Below, in pieces: positions 52,944 to 60,839 of a stretch of DNA of 64,000 bases; the first letter of the stretch is position 1; the number at the start of each line of letters is the position of its first letter. Source of the stretch: Bacillota bacterium (GTDB lineage Bacteria; Bacillota; Clostridia; Christensenellales; CAMQZB01); contig JAWXUX010000011.1 of NCBI GenBank assembly GCA_044426045.1, forward strand, positions 760 through 64,759, written 5' to 3'. Below the pieces are notes generated by a model that was not told the DNA's origin, searched no databases, and worked only from the letters and a program-made list of their open reading frames with translations. The position numbers and the translations under genes are program-made.

Positions 52944-53675
52944 TCAAACAGTCGAGATTTGCTCGCCGTTTGAATTTATTTTGTAGTCCTCTTTGATTAT
53001 AAGCTCCGAAACTGTCACAAATTCGTAACCTTCAGCTATGAGTTTCGGAATTGCATCTTTTATCCCTTCAACAACGTTGTCAGAATTGTTGTGCATGAGT
53101 ATTATTGAGCCCGCAGAAACTTTTGTTGTTATCCTTTGTGAGATTTCCGACCCCGAAATGCCTTTCCAATCGAGGGTGTCGACATCCCATTGAATAACTT
53201 TTTGACCAATTTCGTCGCACGCAGTTATCATATCGTTTGTGTATTCGCCAAAAGGTGCACGAAAAACATTGATTTCTACCCCCGCGATGCTTTCGATTAT
53301 TTCAGTTGAAGACTGAATTTCGCTGATTGTTTCAGCGGTTGTCATGCTTGCAAAATGCGGGTGGGTTGACGAATGATTGCCAACTTCACAGCCAGATTCC
53401 ACAATCGCCCCCACCATATCGGGATATTTTTCCGCCCAAAAACTTACCATAAAAAACGTCGCGTCGATATCATATTCTTCCAAAACTTCCAAAATTTCCA
53501 ACGTTTTATCTGCTCCCCATGCACAATCGAATGTGAGCGCAATTTGTTTTTCTTCCGTTTTCACGCGATAGATTGGAACGAGGCGCTTGCTGCTTGTGTA
53601 GCCCACCAAAACAGTGATTGAAAATATACAAACTGAAAATATTGCAATCAATTTCATTGCTGTTTTACTTCTCAT
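52944..53675 (-). CDS. Polysaccharide deacetylase (NodB homology domain), PdaA/PdaB-like
   Basis: LTFDCAWG, HSSTHPH motifs. Start moved to ATG 53675 (AAAGGAGA upstream), giving an N-terminal signal/TM. Confidence 0.85.
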   Translation of the reverse strand: MRSKTAMKLIAIFSVCIFSITVLVGYTSSKRLVPIYRVKTEEKQIALTFDCAWGADKTLEILEVLEEYDIDATFFMVSFWAEKYPDMVGAIVESGCEVGNHSSTHPHFASMTTAETISEIQSSTEIIESIAGVEINVFRAPFGEYTNDMITACDEIGQKVIQWDVDTLDWKGISGSEISQRITTKVSAGSIILMHNNSDNVVEGIKDAIPKLIAEGYEFVTVSELIIKEDYKINSNGEQISTV

Positions 53676-53846
53676 ATCATCTCCTTTATTATACCAAGTG
53701 CACATGTGTAAAAGCTATACACTAACCGCTCTATTAATGTCGAAGTTTCACTGTTTTTAGCAAAAAAACGGGTGTGAGAGTTTCGGTGCGGTTTTGAGTT
53801 TTGTTTATTATATGCGAGAGGGGGTGGGGAATATGTTTTTTTTAAG

Positions 53847-54048
53847 GTGAAAGGTGAAAGGTGAAAGGTGAAAGGTTTGGTAGGCACTCGCTTCGCTCGT
53901 GCATTCAATTTATATTTGGGCAGTAAAAAAGGAACGTTCCTATTTGAATAGTTACGTCCCTACTATTGGTTACAAATATAATTGAAAAGCACGAAGCGAA
54001 GCTGAGTGCATTACCACACCTTTCACCTTTCACCTTTCACCTTTCACC
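53847..54048. repeat. Composite palindromic intergenic element, copy F (type 1 core)
   Basis: 4x GTGAAAG, GTTTGGTAGG hairpin, core, hairpin, ATTACCACAC, 4x CTTTCAC. The most compact type 1 copy. Confidence 0.9.
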
Positions 54049-54052
54049 TAAT

Positions 54053-54071
54053 AAAAAATCTTCGATTTTTT
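54053..54071 (-). terminator. Weak AT-rich hairpin at the permease stop
   Basis: AAAAAATCttcGATTTTTT. Confidence 0.3.
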
Positions 54072-55419
54072 ATTTTGCTTTCTTATTCATAAAAATCATA
54101 CCCACAACGCCGACTACTGCGAAAACTATCAAATAATAGAAGTTTGCCCAGCCGTGGCTTACTATTGAGGCTGTCATCATGACAAGTGAAGCCGCGCAGC
54201 CTGCGATTGGCATAACGAATCTTTTGAAGAATGGCAAATCTTTTTCCTTTTTCATCATCATGATGAAAATTGGGATATAAAGTGCATAGATTGTTACGAT
54301 TGGAATTTCTGATGAGTCAAACGTGAACACTCCAAACCATGTTGATGTGAGGTTTGCGCCATAGAAATATAGTAGCCAAAAACCTGAAAGGAACAAGCCA
54401 AGAACACAAGAGTTTGTTGGCATGCCAGTTGTTTTATCGATTGTTTTGAGCATATCTTGTTTTGGACCAAGGTCTCTTGCTGCAAGTGAATAAAGCGCAC
54501 GAACGCCACCCAGCATCAAGCCGTTTTCTGTTCCCAAAACTGAAATCACAATAAACACCATCAAGATTGTTGCACCGCCAGAGCCAAGAAGGTTTGTGAA
54601 CGCTTGTTTAACACCCTCTTCGCCAAGTGACATGAGGTCAGCGTTTCCGATTGAACCAGCTAGTCCAATATAATAGACAACATATGTCACCACAACGATG
54701 AGCGTTCCGCCAACTAGGGCTATTGGTAAGTTCTTTTTCGCGTCTTTGAGTTCGGCATTGATTGATGTTGCAATGATCCACCCTTCATAGGCAAAACATG
54801 TCGCACAAACTGCCGTGAAAAGACCTGTTGATGTTGAAACTGTTGGATCAACAACTGTTGTGAAGTTTTCAATCATCACGCCGTTTGAAAGACCCACGAT
54901 TGTTCCCACAACCGCCATGATTGCAAGTGGAATCATTTTGATTACCGTTGTTGAAACTTGGAATTTGCCCGCAAGTATTGGCGAAATTGTGTTCATCGTG
55001 AATGATGCCACCAAAACAAACATTGAAATTGTCATAACTTCAGCTGATGTGATGTCAAATCCAAGAAGCACGCCGATATATCTGCCCGATATCCATGCGA
55101 GAACTGAAACTAGTGATGGATAATAAATTATCGCCATGAACCAACCAACAAAGTAGCCATATTTTTTGCCACACGCTTGTTCGGCATAGTCCACAAGTCC
55201 ATTAACCTTTTCATATTTTGTTGCCATAACAGCAAAATTATAAGCACAAATAACCATGATGATACCACCGATTATCCATGCCAAAATGCCAATCGGCAAG
55301 TTTCCGCCAGTTGCATTCAGTACTTTTTCTGCTTTGAAAAATACACCACTTCCGATAACGATACCAACAACAAGTGCCATCGCCGTGAAGAGTCCATATT
55401 TTTTTGATAAGTTGTCCAT
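54070..55419 (-). CDS. APC superfamily amino-acid permease
   Basis: 449 aa, about 12 TM helices, N-terminal GIVIGSGVF motif. Confidence 0.85.
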   Translation of the reverse strand: MDNLSKKYGLFTAMALVVGIVIGSGVFFKAEKVLNATGGNLPIGILAWIIGGIIMVICAYNFAVMATKYEKVNGLVDYAEQACGKKYGYFVGWFMAIIYYPSLVSVLAWISGRYIGVLLGFDITSAEVMTISMFVLVASFTMNTISPILAGKFQVSTTVIKMIPLAIMAVVGTIVGLSNGVMIENFTTVVDPTVSTSTGLFTAVCATCFAYEGWIIATSINAELKDAKKNLPIALVGGTLIVVVTYVVYYIGLAGSIGNADLMSLGEEGVKQAFTNLLGSGGATILMVFIVISVLGTENGLMLGGVRALYSLAARDLGPKQDMLKTIDKTTGMPTNSCVLGLFLSGFWLLYFYGANLTSTWFGVFTFDSSEIPIVTIYALYIPIFIMMMKKEKDLPFFKRFVMPIAGCAASLVMMTASIVSHGWANFYYLIVFAVVGVVGMIFMNKKAK

Positions 55420-55487
55420 AATTTTATTTCTCCCCTTTTATCATTATGCATTTTTGTATAACTTTATTCTCTTAGCTATACGTATAA

Positions 55488-55516
55488 ATTATACACTCGT
55501 CTTATTTGTTTGTCAA
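55488..55516 (-). promoter_or_regulatory. Sigma-A-type promoter of the amino-acid permease gene
   Basis: Minus strand TTGACA-N17-TATAAT (perfect consensus). Confidence 0.6.
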
Positions 55517-55659
55517 TTATTTAACAGAAAAAATTCACCAATATATAGCACTAAATCAAACTTTATTTCACTTATTTTATCATCGATTCCAAAATGCTCT
55601 TTTTTGGTAATTTTTGCAGTGTTTATGGCGGTGTTTGGTTTTTAAAATACGACAAATTT

Positions 55660-55691
55660 GCGTGTATCTAGCTTGATACACGCGTGTTTTT
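55660..55691 (+). terminator. Orphan terminator-like hairpin (no obvious plus-strand gene)
   Basis: GCGTGTATCtagcttGATACACGC followed by GTGTTTTT. Its 3' half is related to the 65-nt module at 35476-35619. Confidence 0.4.
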
Positions 55692-55906
55692 GGATAGCAT
55701 TCGCACGCTGTTTTTTGTTGTTTTTTAGGGGGATGTTCTAGGATTATTTCACTTGAAACTTCAACATTTTCAACGCCGAAATAAAAATGAATTTCCTTTT
55801 CTTCCCTGTCGCAAATTGATGTGTAGAATTTCATGGGGGGGGTGATTTTTTTTGGTTTTGAGTTTGGGCATAGTTAGGCGGTTGGTTTGGGGGGATATTT
55901 TTTTAA

Positions 55907-56172
55907 GTGAAAGGTGAAAGGTGAAAGGTGAAAGGTGTGGTAGGCACTACGCTTCGCTCCGTGCACCCCATTATATTTGGCTAGTTTAATAGGAACGTTC
56001 CTATTGAATAGTTGCGTTCCTACAAGTGGTTGCAAATATAATTGAAAAGCACAAGGCAAAGCCGAGTGCATTACCACAACTTTTCACTTTTCACTTTTCA
56101 CTTTTCACTTTAAGCGTAGCGTTTCACTTTAAGCGTAGCGTTTCACTTTAAGCGTAGCGTTTCACCTTTTAC
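55907..56172. repeat. Composite palindromic intergenic element, copy G (type 1 core, mixed arms)
   Basis: Left arm 4x GTGAAAG but right arm 4x TTTTCAC (GTGAAAA type). Followed by 3 tandem 19-bp units TTTAAGCGTAGCGTTTCAC (56109-56165). Confidence 0.9.
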
Positions 56173-56175
56173 CTT

Positions 56176-56194
56176 AAAATCGCTACGCGATTTT
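56176..56194 (-). terminator. Hairpin at the stop of 56193..57056
   Basis: AAAATCGCtacGCGATTTT. Confidence 0.35.
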
Positions 56195-57056
56195 ATCTAT
56201 CGTTTTTCTTTGCTTTCACGATATAGTTGCCGTTTTTTACGTTACCGAACATGTAGTATCCGATGTCGTTGGTTCTTGTTGTTGCGATACATCTTTCGAT
56301 TTGTTTGCTTGTTGCGTTGATTTCGTAAAGACCAACATAAACGCCTGTTTTGATTACGTTATCATATTTCACAAAGCCAGAGATTGTGCCTGTGTTTGTT
56401 TCGGGATCTTTGACGATGATGAGCGTTGAGTTGACGATATTGCCACCCGCGATAGTCACAAGGATTGTGTTTGAAGCCTTATAACCATCTTTTGTTGCAA
56501 CGATGTTATACGCGCCGTCTTCGATTGCGTAAAAAACAAACTCGCCGTCGTCGGCTGAAATTGTTGTTGCAATTGTTTCGTCAGTTTCTGGGTTTTTGAG
56601 ATACACTTTTGCATTTTCCGCTGATGAAGTTTCATCGTTATCGAAAAGTTCTTTGACAATACCTGCAACAGTGCCAAGTTCCATTGTGGTGTCATATTCA
56701 AGTGTCAAATCAACGCTTTGAAGTTCGTTTGGGTTCAAAATGCATGTTTTTGGAATACTGATTGGGCATTTTTTCGATGTGCATGCGATTGAATACGTTC
56801 CGCTTGCAAGGTCTTCGAAAATATATTTACCAGAGGCATCTGTCAAAACGTGGAGATACGGTTTGCCGTTTTCGTCGAATAATTTGACCGTTGCACCTTC
56901 TGCTGGATTGCCGTCTTGGTCAGTAACCGTTCCTTCAATTCCTGAAGAGTCGTTTTCTGATTCCGCAAGCGACAGTGTCACTTCAAATTCTTCCTTATCT
57001 TGCAATGTGAATTCATCACTATACACCAATTTGTATTTATCTTTTATAATTGCCAT
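56193..57056 (-). CDS. Protein with three carboxypeptidase-regulatory-like (CarboxypepD_reg-type beta-sandwich) repeats, no signal peptide
   Basis: 287 aa with three repeats of G.V.G.V.D..G.P...A.V.L.......TD..G.Y.F..L..G.Y. Confidence 0.65.
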   Translation of the reverse strand: MAIIKDKYKLVYSDEFTLQDKEEFEVTLSLAESENDSSGIEGTVTDQDGNPAEGATVKLFDENGKPYLHVLTDASGKYIFEDLASGTYSIACTSKKCPISIPKTCILNPNELQSVDLTLEYDTTMELGTVAGIVKELFDNDETSSAENAKVYLKNPETDETIATTISADDGEFVFYAIEDGAYNIVATKDGYKASNTILVTIAGGNIVNSTLIIVKDPETNTGTISGFVKYDNVIKTGVYVGLYEINATSKQIERCIATTRTNDIGYYMFGNVKNGNYIVKAKKNDR

Positions 57057-57109
57057 AATATGGTTCTCCTTTGCTTTCGCAATGTGTGTTTTTGGTTCTC
57101 ACCATACCC

Positions 57110-57137
57110 CATTATATGAATTGTTATTTTGTTTGGT
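57110..57137 (-). promoter_or_regulatory. Sigma-K-like promoter candidate for 56193..57056
   Basis: Minus strand AC-N17-CATATAATG (Bacillus sigma-K consensus AC-N16/17-CATAnnnTA). No sigma-A -35 is present. Confidence 0.3.
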
Positions 57138-57229
57138 GTGAAATTTTGCCTTTCTTAAAAGAATTTTTCCCAAAATTAAGGTTACTTTAAAGTTTGAGAT
57201 TTATTCTTTTATTAAGCAAAACACTAGTC

Positions 57230-57257
57230 ACATTTTGAAGCCACCTCGCATAATATC
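57230..57257 (+). promoter_or_regulatory. Sigma-K-like promoter candidate for 57279..57905
   Basis: AC-N17-CATAATATC. Confidence 0.25.
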
Positions 57258-57278
57258 AAGCAAAGCGGGAGGTTAAAA

Positions 57279-57905
57279 ATGGAAAAATTTTATACGGATA
57301 TCATGGCGGGAATTGCCCTTGAAGAGGCGGGGATTGCACACATTTTGAATGCGGAAGGTGAAAAAATTCAGCTTGCCGTTGCAAATTGTAGCAATATTTG
57401 CGAGCTTTTGGAAGTCAATGCTTCGGTTGCTTGCACGATTGAGGAGATTATGTGGCTTGAATTTATTTCATACCACAAAATGAAAACTCTGCTGGGCTGT
57501 TGCAGTTGCCAAAATTGCAAGGAAGAAAAACCACCACGGAAAAAGCCTTGCTGTGACGAAAAAAAGAAATGTCCACCAAAAGCGCCCTGCAAAAAATGTG
57601 GCGGGGGTGAGACTGGGGATTGCTTGCCAATAAAAGAAAAGCCAAACTGCTCTTGTAGGGTAGAAATTTGCGGTCGCGTTTTTAAAGCGAACGGCGAAAT
57701 TGCAACTTGCGGAGTTGTGACTGCTAACGGAAATGGCGTGGTTTCAACGGAAATTTGCTCGGATGGTAGGTATTTTTTGAAAAACCTGAACCCAACGACT
57801 AAACTTGTTGTCAATGCACATTCGAATTGCGGAAAAACTGGTTCTTTTCTTTTGAAAAAACCGTTTAAAAATTCTTATCAAATAGATATGTTTTTGGACG
57901 GTTAA
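57279..57905 (+). CDS. Cys/Lys/Pro-rich protein: N-terminal AHILNAEGEKIQ helical domain plus C-terminal beta-sandwich-like domain
   Basis: 208 aa. The N-terminal ~75 aa are homologous to the 58029..58394 product. Linker CCSCQNCKEEKPPRKKPCCDEKKKCPPKAPCKKCGGG. GGGAGG SD. Confidence 0.6.
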   Translation: MEKFYTDIMAGIALEEAGIAHILNAEGEKIQLAVANCSNICELLEVNASVACTIEEIMWLEFISYHKMKTLLGCCSCQNCKEEKPPRKKPCCDEKKKCPPKAPCKKCGGGETGDCLPIKEKPNCSCRVEICGRVFKANGEIATCGVVTANGNGVVSTEICSDGRYFLKNLNPTTKLVVNAHSNCGKTGSFLLKKPFKNSYQIDMFLDG

Positions 57906-57950
57906 TTCACTTTATATGGTGATTTAAACTCTTACTTCTTTTTTATTAGC

Positions 57951-57980
57951 AAAAAACATCCCAAAAGTGGGATGTTTTTT
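57951..57980. terminator. Bidirectional intrinsic terminator between convergent genes
   Basis: AAAAAACATCCCAaaagTGGGATGTTTTTT. Confidence 0.7.
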
Positions 57981-58028
57981 GTTTTTTTTATTTGTTTTTG
58001 CTTGATTTTGTTTGTTTTTGGCTTGCTT

Positions 58029-58394
58029 TTATAAAGCTTCTGCTGTTTTGCTGACTTCTGTTTCGTCTTTAACGATAACTTCTTCTTCCACAACTTCGAC
58101 TTCTTCCTTAACTTCTTCGTCACATTTGCAAAGACAATCGGTGAACAATCCTAGTTTTGAAATCAAAATCTTTTCAAGTTCGGCAACAGTCCCAACCATG
58201 TCGGACACAGAATTGTTGAATTCGAGAAGCTGTTCGCTTGTCACCTCTTTATCCGCAACAACACGTTGAATTTTTTCGCCCTCCGCATTCAAAATATGTG
58301 CAAGAGCTGCTTGTTCAAGTGCAACTGATGCAATGATATCTGTTATGGCTTCGCAACGAGTTACCCCGCTTGTTTCAATTACTGGCATTCCCAT
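58029..58394 (-). CDS. Small protein with AHILNAEGEKIQ helical domain and acidic tail
   Basis: 121 aa. TDIIASVALEQAALAHILNAEGEKIQ...CLCKCDEE followed by an E/V-rich tail. AAAGGAGAAAC SD. Confidence 0.6.
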   Translation of the reverse strand: MGMPVIETSGVTRCEAITDIIASVALEQAALAHILNAEGEKIQRVVADKEVTSEQLLEFNNSVSDMVGTVAELEKILISKLGLFTDCLCKCDEEVKEEVEVVEEEVIVKDETEVSKTAEAL

Positions 58395-58433
58395 TTTTAG
58401 TTTCTCCTTTTTGGTTTATGCCTTATTATATGC

Positions 58434-58462
58434 AAAGGGGGGAGGGGGAGGTGCTGGGGTGG
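58434..58462 (-). promoter_or_regulatory. Sigma-K-like promoter candidate for 58029..58394
   Basis: Minus strand AC-N18-CATATAATA. Confidence 0.3.
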
Positions 58463-58516
58463 GTGCAGATTTTTTTTGTTGAGAGGATTTAGAATATAAT
58501 GTTATAGTTTTTTAAA

Positions 58517-58730
58517 GTGAAAAGTGAAAGGTGAAAGGTGAAAGGTGTGGTAATGCACTCGCTTTGCTCGTGCTTTCAATGTTTAAAAATATAAATAGTT
58601 GCAAACAACTTTTGTCGTTTGCAACTTATTTTAGTTTTGTATTCAATTTTGGGTGCACGGAGCGTTAGCGTAGTGCCTACCACACCTTTCACCTTTCACC
58701 TTTCACCTTTCACCTTAGCGAAGCGTTTTA
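58517..58730. repeat. Composite palindromic intergenic element, copy H (type 2 core)
   Basis: GTGAAAA + 3x GTGAAAG, GTGTGGTAATGCAC..., core stem AGTTGCAAAC/GTTTGCAACT, ...GTGCCTACCACAC, 4x CTTTCAC, TTAGCGAAGCGTT. Confidence 0.9.
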
Positions 58731-58736
58731 CTCAAT

Positions 58737-58775
58737 AAAAAACTCCCCATCTTGCGACAGGGAGTACTTTTTTTA
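58737..58775 (-). terminator. Intrinsic terminator after the EF-G paralog
   Basis: Minus strand ACTCCC-N12-GGGAGT followed by TTTTTTATT. Confidence 0.6.
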
Positions 58776-60839
58776 TTTCTCTTTCTCTTCTTCATAAGCT
58801 TTAACAACTTTTCTTGTTACTTCTTCTGGAGCGGATTCGTATCTTTCGAAATGCATTGTGTATTTGCCCCTGCCTTGCGTGATTTGGCGAAGGTCTGTTG
58901 CGTATCTGAGCATTTCAGCTTGTGGAACTTCCGCTGTCACAACTTGGCGACCTTCTGCGTTTGTTTCCATGCCCAGAATTCTTCCGCGACGTTTGTTCAT
59001 GTCGCTCATAATACCGCCTGTGTATTCATCATTGACGATGATTTCCGCTGTCATGATTGGTTCAAGCAAAATAGGAGATGCGTTTTTGAGTTCTTTGAAC
59101 GCTTGACTTGCCGCCATTTTGAAGGCTACTTCAGATGAATCGACATCGTGATATTTGCCGTCAAAAACAACTGCTTTCAAGTTCACAACTGGGCATCCCG
59201 CTTGGATACCTTTCAAAAGACATTCGCGGATACCTTTTTCAATAGCTGGGATATATTGTTTTGGCACTGCCCCGCCAACAACTTCGCTTGCAAACTCGAA
59301 TTCACCTTCGTAAAGTGGTTCAAATCTCATTTTGCAGACGCCGTATTGACCGCCACCACCAGATTGTTTGATGTGTTTGCCTTCCGCTTCGATTTTCTTT
59401 CTTATTGTTTCGCGATATGAAATCTTTGGAGTTTCCAAAAGCGCTTCAACCTTGAATTTTGATTGCAATTTTTTGCAGATGATGTCAAGGTGAGTTTCAC
59501 CCATACCTGAAAGCAATGTTTGATTTGTTTCGGCGTTCTTTTCGATTGTGAAAGTCACGTCTTCTTCTGCTATTCTGTAAAGTCCTTGGATGACTTTTTC
59601 TTCTTGTTTAGAATCTTTTGCTGTCACAGCAAGGGTCATCATTGGTTTTGGGAATTCGATTTCAGGATATTTCATGCCAAACTTTTCGCTTGCAAGAGTG
59701 TCGCCTGTGTTTGTGTTTTGAAGTTTTGCAATCGCACCGATATCACCCGCGCAAAGGCAATCAATAGCCTTTTGTTTTTTGCCTTTCATAACAAGCGGTG
59801 CAGAGATTTTTTCAGTTTTGCCAGTTGTCATATTGATAAGGCTGTCGCCTGGCTTTAGCATACCTGTCATCACTTTCACGATATTCATTTTGCCAACGAA
59901 TGGGTCTGCGATTGTTTTGAAAACTTTCACTGATGTCGCGCCTTCTTCTGAAATTGTGACTGCAACTTCGTTGCCTTCGCCATCAATCGCTTTCACATGA
60001 GTGTTTTCGCCTGGCTCGGGCATCACGCGCACGATTTGATCCATCAAGTTGAAAACGCCTTTGTTTGCTGTTGCAGATCCGCAAAGGATTGGAACTGTGC
60101 TACCTTCGTTGATACCAATTCTCACGCCTTTGATAACTTCATCATTTGTGAGTTCAATTCCTTCAAAGAATTTGTCAAGCAAGCCTTCGTCGTTTTCCGC
60201 TGCCGCTTCGATAAGTTGTTTATATGCGTTATCCGCGGCTTCTTTATATTCCGCTGGGATGTCGATTTTGTCACGTTTTGTTTCGCCGAACCTATACGCG
60301 CGTTGGCTTAGAATAGAGATATATCCCACCATTTTGCCGTCTTCAAGCATTGGAAGTTGAAGCGGTGCGATTTTGTTGCCAAAAGTTTCTTTGAGGGCGG
60401 CTATTGTGCCTGTTATATCGGCATTTTCCTTATCAACTTGGTTGATGAAAAGCATCATTGGAAGTTTAGCTTTCAAGCATCTTTCGATTGATTTTTCAAG
60501 ACCAACTGTAACTTCGCCCGTTGGACCTGCCACGATGATTGCGCCATCAGCTGCTTGCATGCCTTGATAGATTTCACCCGCGAAATCATAAAAACCTGGA
60601 AGGTCGATAAGATTTAGGCGTAGCTCTTTCCATTCACATGATGCAACTGAAAGTGAAATTGACATTTTTTTCGCAATTTCTTGTTCTTCAAAATCCATGC
60701 ACGTTGTGCCGTCTGTTATTTTACCCATGCGGTCGATTTCGCCAGCGTTATATAAAATCGCTTCGCAAAGTGAAGTTTTACCTTCACCACTGTGACCCAT
60801 GACTGCAATATTCCTTATTTTTTTAGTTTCGTAGCTCAT
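58773..60839 (-). CDS. Elongation factor G family GTPase (stand-alone paralog, not in an rpsL-rpsG-fusA-tuf context)
   Basis: 688 aa. G1 GHSGEGKTS, G3 DLPG; EF-G domains II-V are collinear. Confidence 0.9.
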   Translation of the reverse strand: MSYETKKIRNIAVMGHSGEGKTSLCEAILYNAGEIDRMGKITDGTTCMDFEEQEIAKKMSISLSVASCEWKELRLNLIDLPGFYDFAGEIYQGMQAADGAIIVAGPTGEVTVGLEKSIERCLKAKLPMMLFINQVDKENADITGTIAALKETFGNKIAPLQLPMLEDGKMVGYISILSQRAYRFGETKRDKIDIPAEYKEAADNAYKQLIEAAAENDEGLLDKFFEGIELTNDEVIKGVRIGINEGSTVPILCGSATANKGVFNLMDQIVRVMPEPGENTHVKAIDGEGNEVAVTISEEGATSVKVFKTIADPFVGKMNIVKVMTGMLKPGDSLINMTTGKTEKISAPLVMKGKKQKAIDCLCAGDIGAIAKLQNTNTGDTLASEKFGMKYPEIEFPKPMMTLAVTAKDSKQEEKVIQGLYRIAEEDVTFTIEKNAETNQTLLSGMGETHLDIICKKLQSKFKVEALLETPKISYRETIRKKIEAEGKHIKQSGGGGQYGVCKMRFEPLYEGEFEFASEVVGGAVPKQYIPAIEKGIRECLLKGIQAGCPVVNLKAVVFDGKYHDVDSSEVAFKMAASQAFKELKNASPILLEPIMTAEIIVNDEYTGGIMSDMNKRRGRILGMETNAEGRQVVTAEVPQAEMLRYATDLRQITQGRGKYTMHFERYESAPEEVTRKVVKAYEEEKEK

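Follow-up and report, generated by a model that had tools for sequence, protein, structure and literature searches.

Organization of the locus

The window analyzed here is a DNA stretch of 64,000 nucleotides. Its host belongs to an uncultured Bacillota/Clostridia MAG lineage, which is anaerobic and has a 2-Mb genome. In an earlier sequence-only reading, three unassigned genes had been described in this window, and all three open reading frames are present. It had also been claimed that their products share a domain carrying the motif NAEGEKIQ, which is true for the 208-aa and the 121-aa proteins but not for the 287-aa protein. As had been suggested, no signal peptide is evident when the N-termini of the three proteins are read. 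The features of the locus are as follows (A-ENA, alpha-helical endospore appendage):

53836-54060, 55894-56170 and 58508-58717: flanking repeats
56193..57056, minus strand: gene of the 287-aa protein, three CarboxypepD_reg/SdrD_B-type beta-sandwich domains
57111..57137, minus strand: sigma-K/E-type promoter-like motif of the 287-aa gene, ACCAAACAAAATAACAATTCATATAAT (AC-N17-CATAtaaT)
57230..57256, plus strand: sigma-K/E-type promoter-like motif of the fusion gene, ACATTTTGAAGCCACCTCGCATAATAT (AC-N17-CATAataT)
57279..57905, plus strand: gene of the 208-aa fusion protein, A-ENA domain + linker + beta-sandwich
57279..57494, plus strand: A-ENA domain of the fusion (residues 1-72), helical hairpin without N-terminal latch
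57495..57653, plus strand: Cys/Lys/Pro-rich disordered linker of the fusion (residues 73-125)
57654..57905, plus strand: C-terminal prealbumin/CarboxypepD_reg-like beta-sandwich of the fusion (residues 126-208) plus stop codon
57948..57983, no strand: hairpin (16-pair stem, 4-nt loop) followed by a T-run, likely a shared (bidirectional) terminator
58029..58394, minus strand: gene of the 121-aa protein, single-domain A-ENA subunit; latch MGMPVIETSGVTR (residues 1-13), helix 1 (13-47), helix 2 (53-82), acidic disordered tail (82-121)
58425..58452, minus strand: sigma-K/E-type promoter-like motif of the 121-aa gene, ACCTCCCCCTCCCCCCTTTGCATATAAT (AC-N18-CATAtaaT), C-rich spacer

The fusion and 121-aa genes converge on the terminator-like hairpin. 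In four genomes, the module is kept in the order permease, 287-aa protein, fusion protein and small A-ENA protein, and the fusion proteins of these genomes share 52-86% identity. In the same-genus genome G001, the downstream flank of the module differs and the adjacency of the 287-aa and A-ENA genes stays. In the whole genome of the host, we counted two A-ENA genes. An Rfam scan of positions 53500-59000 gave no RNA family match.

It had been proposed that each gene is preceded by the motif AC-N17/18-CATAnnnT, and this was confirmed. A single copy of the motif precedes each gene (at -49, -58 and -81 relative to the start codons), its genome-wide rate is 0.41 per kb per strand, and the chance of finding it within 100 nt for all three genes is p ~6e-5. 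It is conserved in three orthologous loci and in 11 of the 12 orthologous upstream regions. For the 121-aa gene, the -10 element is conserved in the loci L026, L027 and L013 and the AC in L026 and L013; for the 287-aa gene, the motif is conserved in the same three loci; for the fusion gene, the CACATTTT...GCATA core is kept in 4/4 orthologous loci.

The locus had further been described as bracketed by repeats. Such repeats are present, but the bracketing is not specific for this locus because they belong to a genome-wide family: the repeat pattern gave 842 overlapping matches in the genome versus 0 in the reversed control. The idea that the repeats mark a mobile island was rejected, since the repeat is a genome-wide intergenic element; it is also countered by the presence of the module at an identical site, adjoining the permease gene, in three related genomes.

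Family assignment and structural properties of the 121-aa protein

Both NAEGEKIQ-domain proteins matched chain A of PDB entry 9ihh in phmmer, the 121-aa protein with E 9.4e-15 over residues 1-81 and the 208-aa protein with E 8.9e-8 over residues 7-69. This entry is entitled "Ex vivo spore-silk A-ENA fibers" and originates from Bacillus thuringiensis israelensis (Bti). The Pfam family PF26595 (A_ENA) is precomputed on both proteins (listed as P0001 and P0121) and on all 447+42 database relatives. When the domain was scanned against Pfam (in a release older than PF26595), NCBIfam and PHROGs, no accepted match was obtained; a match to Mce4_CUP1 (E 0.009) was rejected as helical noise. DUF3992, which is the S-/L-ENA subunit, gave no match in the Pfam scan of the three proteins. 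The N-terminal helical domain of ~75 residues, which the sequence-only reading had seen in both the 208-aa and the 121-aa proteins, proved to be shared indeed (36/75 identities, 48%; pairwise E 2e-15), and the DNA of their genes shows 78% complementarity along a stretch of 89 nt.

The only A-ENA fibers described so far, in 2026, are those of a single aerobic insect pathogen (Sleutel et al., Nat Commun 2026, PMC13111695), and our literature search for "spore-silk" or PF26595 yielded nothing besides this single paper. A-ENA subunits are alpha-helical hairpins, which self-stack into double-helical fibers, and intermolecular isopeptide bonds that arise autocatalytically lock these fibers. Both the self-assembly and the autocatalysis were shown in E. 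coli (PMC13111695). The result is an 8-nm double-helical cross-alpha fiber on or around spores, which in the insect pathogen glues the spores to toxin crystals (PMC13111695).

The 121-aa and 208-aa proteins are members of this family, and the formerly unassigned locus can now be named: it is a recognizable A-ENA spore-surface locus with few local peculiarities. We consider it highly probable that its products make up an endospore appendage system of the A-ENA (alpha-helical) type in an uncultured, spore-forming member of the Bacillota/Clostridia. The earlier proposal of a spore-surface module, in which the family had been left unnamed, is supported by the assignment to A-ENA (PDB 9ihh, Pfam PF26595). 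Homology to a well-characterized non-spore family had been named as an outcome that would speak against it, and the opposite was found, a family of spore-associated fibers. Homologues that precede collagen-like repeats, which had also been brought up, occur in four genomes (G018, G230, G217, G317).

Judged from its sequence, the 121-aa protein is shown by homology to be an orthologue-grade relative of the Bti "sporesilk" subunit. The AF2 model (pLDDT 77.7) predicts a hairpin with helices at residues 13-47 and 53-82. In Foldseek, 9ihh_A was the top match of this model (prob 1.00, TMt 0.75, 46% identity) and the only significant one, the next ones having E >0.6. As latch, we defined the ~13 N-terminal residues starting with M-G-M-P, in which the free G2 amine is the isopeptide donor. 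The 121-aa protein carries such a latch (MGMPVIETSGVTR), and M3, P4 and I6 are invariant among 55 homologues. C-terminal of the hairpin, residues 82-121 form an acidic disordered tail with a net charge of -10.

We assigned the roles of the isopeptide residues according to Table 1 of PMC13111695. The 121-aa protein retains G2, E27, Q28, E38, E40, K41, Q43, N60 and K80, and in terms of residue presence triads 1-3 are conserved (G2/Q43/E40, K41/N60/E38, K80/Q28/E27). The residues retained would allow linkage of the G2 N-terminus to Q, of K to N and of K to E/Q. Among the 120 closest homologues, the triads of bonds 1-3 show little or no variation, and both the 121-aa and the 208-aa proteins have them. 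Triads 4 and 5 were not found in the alignment: K77 is replaced by Leu, as in 112 of the 120 closest homologues, and the pair K76/Q82 reads E/I in the 121-aa protein versus W/Y in the 208-aa protein. On the basis of these residues, bonds 4 and 5 of the Bti fiber are predicted to be unable to form here, so that the inter-protofilament link would be missing and the fiber geometry may differ. Fibers of the paralogue A-ENA1, which lack bonds 1 and 5, are equally stable (PMC13111695) and thus, not all five bonds are required for fiber formation. Since the 121-aa protein has retained the N-terminal latch and three of the five isopeptide triads, it is likely the major fiber subunit.

When we compared the locus with the Bti A-ENA/A-ENA1 "sporesilk" system (UniProt Q8KNV8/Q8KNV7; PDB 9ihh; PMC13111695), we found that both involve a subunit of ~100 aa without signal peptide, the MGMP... 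latch, an alpha-helical hairpin, the core H-[IV]-[IL]-N-A-E-G-E-K-[IV]-Q and the residues of bonds 1-3 together with the catalytic Glu. The promoter motif (AC-N17-CATAtaaTA) and the arrangement of two paralogous genes in a small cluster are also common to the two systems. In contrast to Bti, bonds 4 (K77-E78) and 5 (K76-Q82) cannot form in the window proteins, the 121-aa subunit has a long acidic tail, and the second paralogue is a latch-less fusion and not a near-identical copy. The cluster lacks an amidase gene, there are no Cry/Cyt genes in its vicinity, and it does not reside on a toxin plasmid; its host is an anaerobic uncultured member of a Clostridia-type MAG lineage with a 2-Mb genome.

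Another difference concerns the cysteines. In the 121-aa protein, one Cys lies at the latch junction and three in a D-C-x-C-x-C motif (C14, C87, C89, C91), whereas residues 1-86 of the Bti protein are free of Cys, and cysteine is not mentioned in the A-ENA paper (PMC13111695). Cys is present within 14 residues after the K84 equivalent in 120 of the 120 closest homologues and at the latch junction in 86 of them, and one Cys at the junction of latch and helix plus D-C-x-C-x-C after helix 2 make up the Cys set of the clostridial subtype. Conservation and helix geometry suggest that this cluster may form disulfides replacing the two lost isopeptide bonds. By homology, the main cross-links are nevertheless expected to be intermolecular isopeptide bonds, and the cysteines would be a possible addition.

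The fusion protein and the triple beta-sandwich protein

The AF2 model of the 208-aa fusion protein predicts helices at residues 2-35 and 40-75. The protein retains E15, E16, E26, E28, K29, Q31, N47 and K67 as equivalents of triads 1-3, but the G2 donor is absent: the protein begins four residues before helix 1 and the latch is missing. The Lys/Pro/Cys linker described earlier is present (residues 73-125). It involves 11 Cys in 53 residues (21%), has a net charge of +6 and is predicted to be disordered (AF2 pLDDT <50 over residues 73-125), and its character is kept in the orthologues P0122-P0125. The fusion as a whole has 19 Cys (9.1%).

For the C-terminus, AF2 predicts a seven-strand beta-sandwich (residues 128-206, pLDDT ~80), and Foldseek retrieved prealbumin-like sandwiches of UafA, RrgB, teneurin and intradiol dioxygenases (E 7e-4 to 1e-2). 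At the level of sequence, the match to PF13620 (CarboxypepD_reg) was weak and sub-threshold (14.4 bits, E 0.05), and neither SdrD_B nor another Pfam model scored above threshold on this passenger domain. Thus, the carboxypeptidase-regulatory-like beta-sandwich of the earlier reading holds as a fold but not by sequence. We also considered the domain as a copy of the repeats of the 287-aa protein; the sequence similarity is not significant (E 0.13).

A-ENA fusions ("ruffles") described before combine the A-ENA domain with collagen + C1q, with SdrD_B/OmcB or with 4Fe-4S passengers (PMC13111695), and the fusion classes listed include SdrD_B passengers (PMC13111695). The 208-aa protein resembles them in that it carries a passenger behind an N-terminal A-ENA domain, in that its gene adjoins that of a single-domain subunit and in that its passenger belongs to the prealbumin/SdrD_B-like fold class. 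It differs by its Cys/Lys/Pro-rich, not collagen-like, linker and by a passenger that exceeds no Pfam threshold, SdrD_B included. Other A-ENA fusions of Clostridia, which are of the collagen type and the (PCPRPP)n type, keep the latch and differ in this respect from the 208-aa protein. C-terminal tags on Bti subunits are accessible on the fibers (PMC13111695), and therefore C-terminal passengers are compatible with assembly. The 208-aa protein is probably a minor subunit with a decorating, capping or anchoring role.

The 287-aa protein had been described as three beta-sandwich repeats, and Pfam yielded three CarboxypepD_reg stretches (PF13620, E 4e-29, 101.2 bits versus a cut-off of 32.3) as well as a match to PF17210 (SdrD_B, E 1.6e-19). 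The protein is acidic (net charge -19) and has 4 Cys. It is tied to the A-ENA pair only by genus-level synteny and the shared promoter type, and as such a syntenic neighbor, it is a possible partner of the pair. A general linkage of its family to A-ENA was rejected, since nine homologues from Clostridia MAGs (39-45% identity; Oscillospiraceae, Lachnospiraceae and others) have no A-ENA gene within 4 kb. These homologues leave considerable room for an alternative that we regard as the somewhat less probable one, namely that the gene is an unrelated neighbor with its own function outside the A-ENA system. Most of the nine homologues directly follow a small unassigned gene, which at the one locus read (L019) encodes hydrophobic stretches and has no Pfam match, and the lack of significant similarity to the beta-sandwich of the fusion points in the same direction. 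Against this stands the adjacency to the A-ENA pair, which is kept in all four lineage genomes even though the downstream flank differs in G001. Moreover, the conserved promoter type is that of both A-ENA genes, the fold class is common to the passenger domain of the fusion, and the protein lacks a signal peptide although domains of this type are usually extracellular.

Proposed assembly and timing of expression

We infer that the 121-aa protein would be made without a signal peptide in the mother cell, from its sigma-K/E-type promoter, and may self-stack there into a cross-alpha fiber of two protofilaments. Covalent locking of the fiber would need no accessory enzymes, and the acidic C-terminal tail of the protein would project from the fiber. 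The hairpin of the 208-aa protein appears to carry the isopeptide residues of the stacking face as well as the Gln that accepts a latch, while the protein itself is latch-less, and it would most likely co-polymerize as a minor subunit, at a fiber end or interspersed. It would display its prealbumin-like beta-sandwich on the flexible Cys/Lys/Pro-rich linker, which could tie the fiber by disulfides to Cys-rich spore-surface proteins or to neighboring fibers. With less assurance, we suggest that disulfides of the Cys cluster may stand in for the two lost isopeptide bonds, and we see in the triple beta-sandwich protein a possible surface partner that is co-expressed.

A more far-reaching version of this model, which we put forward tentatively and consider rather unlikely in its entirety, regards the clostridial A-ENA as a distinct hybrid-cross-linked fiber. 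Here, three isopeptide triads would be kept, and the conserved Cys set would have taken the place of bonds 4 and 5 and thereby of the only link between the protofilaments. The latch-less fusion would be a dedicated cap or anchor, which is disulfide-tied to the spore surface and presents a prealbumin-like adhesin domain, with the triple beta-sandwich protein as its partner.

The sequence-only reading had favored a coat or exosporium. Its spore-surface part stands, but its layer part is weakened: an appendage or extrasporal fiber is more likely. If the A-ENA-domain proteins were building blocks of a cross-linked coat/exosporium-like layer, the hairpin would serve as covalent stacking module and the cysteines would tie the proteins into the coat. 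The very Cys-rich fusion (19 Cys, 9.1%; 21% in the linker), the Cys cluster conserved across the small subunit family, the loss of the inter-protofilament isopeptide bond 5 and the presence of only two A-ENA genes in the genome would fit such a layer. We nevertheless judge it improbable, since latch, stacking-face triads and hairpin are conserved to a degree matching a fiber-forming protein, and since Bti A-ENA and A-ENA1 form fibers alone in E. coli, A-ENA1 even without bonds 1 and 5 (PMC13111695).

The fiber that we favor can be compared with two other systems. Like the S-ENA/L-ENA of the Bacillus cereus group (DUF3992, L-BclA tip fibrillae), it would be a mother-cell-made, self-assembling spore-associated fiber with covalent cross-links, in S-/L-ENA disulfides via an N-terminal connector, and with separate minor subunits or tip proteins encoded nearby. 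The folds are unrelated, a beta-rich jellyroll there and an alpha hairpin here, without sequence similarity, and disulfides are the only cross-links of S-/L-ENA. Sortase-assembled Gram-positive pili and MSCRAMM B-repeats (RrgB, SdrD, UafA) likewise present prealbumin/CnaB-like beta-sandwiches on an isopeptide-stabilized fiber, and these proteins are the Foldseek and Pfam neighbors of the fusion C-domain and the 287-aa protein. In contrast to such pili, the present system involves no signal peptide, LPXTG motif or sortase, and its assembly would take place inside the mother cell.

The locus and its four-genome synteny group place the A-ENA building block in small-genome uncultured anaerobic Clostridia without toxin context. 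Broader fiber roles in spore adhesion or aggregation have been suggested (PMC13111695), and the same building block in Clostridia lacking this context supports them. The Cys cluster at the positions of the lost bonds and the latch-less fusion are testable leads on fiber termination, anchoring and extra cross-linking, which also bear on extremely robust self-assembling fibers as recombinant nanofiber material.

As to the timing of expression, the Bti a-ena promoter carries the same AC-N17-CATATAATA motif and was active only in sporulating cells in reporter experiments (PMC13111695). Production by vegetative cells, as a biofilm-matrix or cell-surface fiber not associated with spores in this lineage, is very improbable: TATAAT-like hexamers do occur in the -10 elements, with a perfect sigma-A TATAAT in CATATAAT that by sequence would allow vegetative transcription, but a usable sigma-A -35 is absent, as had been claimed (the best match in our scan was 9/12), a fiber without signal peptide could leave the cell only upon lysis, in line with the lysis of the mother cell, the only homologue studied is strictly sporulation-associated (PMC13111695), and the host has a sporulation core. 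Spo0A and SpoIVA (both above curated cut-offs) are encoded in the genome together with two sigma-K/E-like sigma factors, which agrees with the earlier description of the host as a spore former.

Genes of the locus and identity of the shared domain

The sequence-only reading had placed three open reading frames in this locus, and we recovered all of their coordinates exactly.

56193-57056, minus strand: 287-aa protein with three CarboxypepD_reg/SdrD_B domains
57279-57905, plus strand: 208-aa fusion of A-ENA domain, linker and beta-sandwich
57948-57983: hairpin and T-run in the gap where the fusion and 121-aa genes converge
58029-58394, minus strand: 121-aa protein, a single A-ENA domain

Pairwise comparison of the 208-aa and 121-aa proteins indicated a common N-terminal region of 75 residues (48% identity, E 2e-15), and the DNA of the two genes is still 78% complementary across 89 nt. 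The shared NAEGEKIQ domain had no match in NCBIfam, PHROGs or a Pfam copy lacking PF26595. When we searched the PDB sequences, residues 1-81 of the 121-aa protein matched 9ihh_A, "Ex vivo spore-silk A-ENA fibers" (E 9.4e-15), and so did the 208-aa protein (E 8.9e-8). In a large protein database, precomputed PF26595, which is A_ENA in the gene tables, was present on every one of the small protein's 447 relatives and on all 42 of the fusion's. The AF2 model of the 121-aa protein (alignment of 55 sequences, pLDDT 77.7) involves helices 13-47 and 53-82, and its sole significant structural neighbour in the PDB was 9ihh_A (prob 1.00, target TM 0.75, 46% identity); all subsequent ones had E > 0.6. 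The locus encodes members of A-ENA, a family described and entered in Pfam and PDB in 2026. The spore-surface interpretation, proposed before the family could be named, is supported by this assignment, since A-ENA (PDB 9ihh, PF26595) is a spore-fibre family.

The architecture read from the fusion sequence was also correct. Its AF2 model folds residues 2-35 and 40-75 into a hairpin and residues 128-206 into a beta-sandwich of seven strands (pLDDT about 80), with a disordered segment (73-125, pLDDT < 50) in between. For the sandwich, Foldseek retrieved prealbumin-like domains at E 7e-4 to 1e-2, namely those in UafA, RrgB, teneurin and intradiol dioxygenases; the match of this sandwich to Pfam CarboxypepD_reg was weak (E 0.05). 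For the 287-aa protein, Pfam yielded PF13620 (E 4e-29, three stretches) and PF17210 (E 1.6e-19).

Isopeptide residues and cysteines

A-ENA homologues are known from Clostridia and Bacillales (PMC13111695). In Bacillus thuringiensis israelensis (Bti), the subunits comprise about 100 aa, with an N-terminal latch of 13 residues followed by an alpha-helical hairpin, and stack to a cross-alpha fibre of two protofilaments; on stacking, five donor/acceptor/catalyst triads meet and autocatalytically form intermolecular isopeptide bonds (PMC13111695). The fibres assemble in E. coli without helper proteins, resist boiling SDS and leave C-terminal tags accessible (PMC13111695). We aligned the Bti sequence (PDB-match version) with the window proteins and their 120 closest homologues.

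Isopeptide triads of Bti A-ENA (PMC13111695) and corresponding residues of the 121-aa protein
Bond 1: Bti G2-Q44, catalyst E41; 121-aa protein G2, E40, Q43
Bond 2: Bti K42-N64, catalyst E39; 121-aa protein K41, N60, E38
Bond 3: Bti K84-E29, catalyst E28; 121-aa protein K80, Q28, E27
Bond 4: Bti K77-E78, catalyst E28; donor K77 replaced by Leu in both window proteins and 112/120 homologues
Bond 5: Bti K76-Q82, catalyst E86; K76/Q82 replaced by E/I in the 121-aa protein and W/Y in the fusion

It can be seen that Bti A-ENA has five bonds, whereas the 121-aa protein carries the residues for bonds 1-3 but not for bonds 4 and 5. Across the 120 homologues, the residues of bonds 1-3 are invariant or nearly so. 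Judged from its residues, the 121-aa protein can form at most six of a protomer's ten bonds, the inter-protofilament one not being among them. The recombinant paralogue A-ENA1 formed fibres without bonds 1 and 5 even though the residues for them are conserved, and these fibres were equally stable (PMC13111695). Since the fusion starts only four residues ahead of helix 1, it lacks the latch and the G2 donor; it retains the latch-acceptor Gln (Q31) and the stacking-face triads of bond 2 (K29, N47, E26) and bond 3 (K67, E16, E15).

The fusion contains 19 Cys (9.1%), 11 of which lie in its 53-residue linker (net charge +6). In the 121-aa protein, one Cys (C14) marks the point where the latch joins helix 1, and three more (C87, C89, C91) directly follow helix 2; its acidic disordered tail (residues 82-121) has a net charge of -10. 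All 120 closest homologues carry a Cys at most 14 residues past the K84 equivalent (consensus L-x-L-F-x-D-C-L-C-x-x-C), and 86 of them a Cys at the C14 position. In a biased sample, 120 of the 142 Leu-77 sequences had C-x-C past helix 2 and 102 a latch Cys; neither feature was present in the four "KKE" sequences, which are of Bti type. Residue 14 is level with residues 86-87 in the antiparallel hairpin (helices 13-47, 53-82), and therefore a C14-C87 disulfide, intra- or inter-protomer, is geometrically plausible. The A-ENA paper mentions neither cysteine nor disulfide anywhere and lists fusion classes with collagen/C1q, SdrD_B/OmcB or 4Fe-4S passengers (PMC13111695). Several features go beyond this published description: a conserved Cys cluster in proteins that have lost bonds 4 and 5, a beta-sandwich fusion that has no latch and a linker of Cys/Lys/Pro type, the acidic tail on the 121-aa subunit, and the genus-specific triple beta-sandwich neighbour gene. 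Their functional roles are putative.

Promoter-like motifs, synteny and distribution

Exactly one AC-N17/18-CATAnnnT motif was found upstream of each gene.

57111-57137, minus strand: promoter-like motif of the 287-aa gene
57230-57256, plus strand: promoter-like motif of the fusion gene
58425-58452, minus strand: promoter-like motif of the 121-aa gene

At the genome-wide rate of 0.41 per kb per strand, the probability of this motif within 100 nt of three of three genes is about 6e-5. The motif is kept in 8/9 upstream regions of three orthologous loci in related genomes (11/12 once the window is counted), and all of these regions retain the -10 element. CATATAAT includes the sigma-A hexamer TATAAT, and a sequence scan found no good sigma-A -35 paired with it; sigma-K, sigma-E and sigma-A cannot be separated for these motifs from sequence alone. 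Spo0A (204 bits) and SpoIVA (283 bits) are both encoded in the genome, with scores above cut-off, and the sigma-K model gives 284 and 268 bits for two of its sigma factors. In Bti, the a-ena promoter has a predicted SigK site (CACCTTTGGAATAGCTGTTACATATAATA) and its reporter was on only in sporulating cells (PMC13111695). The spacer of the 121-aa promoter-like motif (58430-58452, minus strand), from AC to CATATAAT, is nearly all C on the coding strand (CCTCCCCCTCCCCCC); because it recurs in orthologous locus L026 (CTCCAACCCCCACCTCC) and, more weakly, in L027, it may represent a conserved promoter feature and not a chance G-tract.

The fusion and 121-aa genes are the only A-ENA genes of this genome (2.05 Mb, 95% complete). 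The order permease, 287-aa protein, fusion, small subunit recurs in three further genomes or contigs: GCA_028748585, GCA_028748465 and "Bacillota bacterium FM_57_G124_V", a MAG of the same genus. Their fusions show identities of 86%, 70% and 52%. Among the three proteins of the module, conservation is greatest for the 287-aa one (84% in the MAG of the same genus). More remote relatives of it (39-45%), present in nine further Clostridia MAGs, had no A-ENA gene within 4 kb, and thus the membership of the 287-aa protein in the module is lineage-specific. A-ENA is sporadic in the order (4/41 sampled genomes) and in the class (14/301 sampled genomes, 13/178 genera), and among the database relatives of the fusion only five proteins have its full architecture. 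Directly downstream lies a 688-aa EF-G-family paralogue (58773-60839, minus strand); the corresponding flank in G001, a genome of the same genus, carries genes for phenylacetate-CoA ligase and indolepyruvate oxidoreductase, so that the module is syntenic on the permease side only.

Flanking repeats and related architectures

Palindromic intergenic elements of about 220 bp surround the locus.

53836-54060: palindromic element
55894-56170: palindromic element, with three 19-nt tandem copies (56103-56168)
58508-58717: palindromic element

Their terminal inverted repeats of ~45 nt consist of (GTGAAAG)4 and GTGTGGTAGGCACT; no Rfam match was found. Across the 2.05-Mb genome the arm pattern had 842 matches (433+409, overlapping ones included) vs 0 in the reversed control, mostly as plus/minus pairs about 165-170 nt apart. 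The elements do flank the locus, as had been described, but they are a general intergenic repeat and we rejected them as a module boundary.

Elsewhere, A-ENA domains occur with a latch and collagen repeats, with a latch and a Cys-rich C-domain attached by a (PCPRPP)n linker, or C-terminally after Cys-rich N-terminal domains. Tandem arrays of A-ENA fusions were seen in other Clostridia (locus L015 on G018:C8, 6568-8629; loci L036, L038 and L047 in genomes G230 and G217), G217 having four such genes consecutively. In one fusion type, the latch and A-ENA domain precede collagen-like GPT repeats and a globular domain at the C-terminus; in another, an (PCPRPPCPPEKPC)n linker joins them to a C-domain rich in Cys (13-19 Cys). 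The database protein P0126 (241 aa) carries a tandem pair of A-ENA domains with an internal latch-like segment (MSAPVIETPASPVSR) between them and a poly-Thr tract ahead, and could represent a dimer of subunits in one polypeptide. The A-ENA domain of P0138 (177 aa) matched Baculo_PEP_C below threshold (E 0.0064, 17 bits, cut-off 38), which is probably helical noise; Baculo_PEP_C is the baculovirus polyhedron envelope protein, and both it and A-ENA wrap crystalline inclusion bodies. In most other Clostridia MAGs (L017-L024), the 287-aa homologue directly follows a gene that ends in a conserved motif containing AQFRDFVSGCVGCLI. In L019, the one locus viewed in full, the product of this gene (~156-177 aa, no Pfam match) has hydrophobic stretches, and a gene for a serine recombinase is found upstream.
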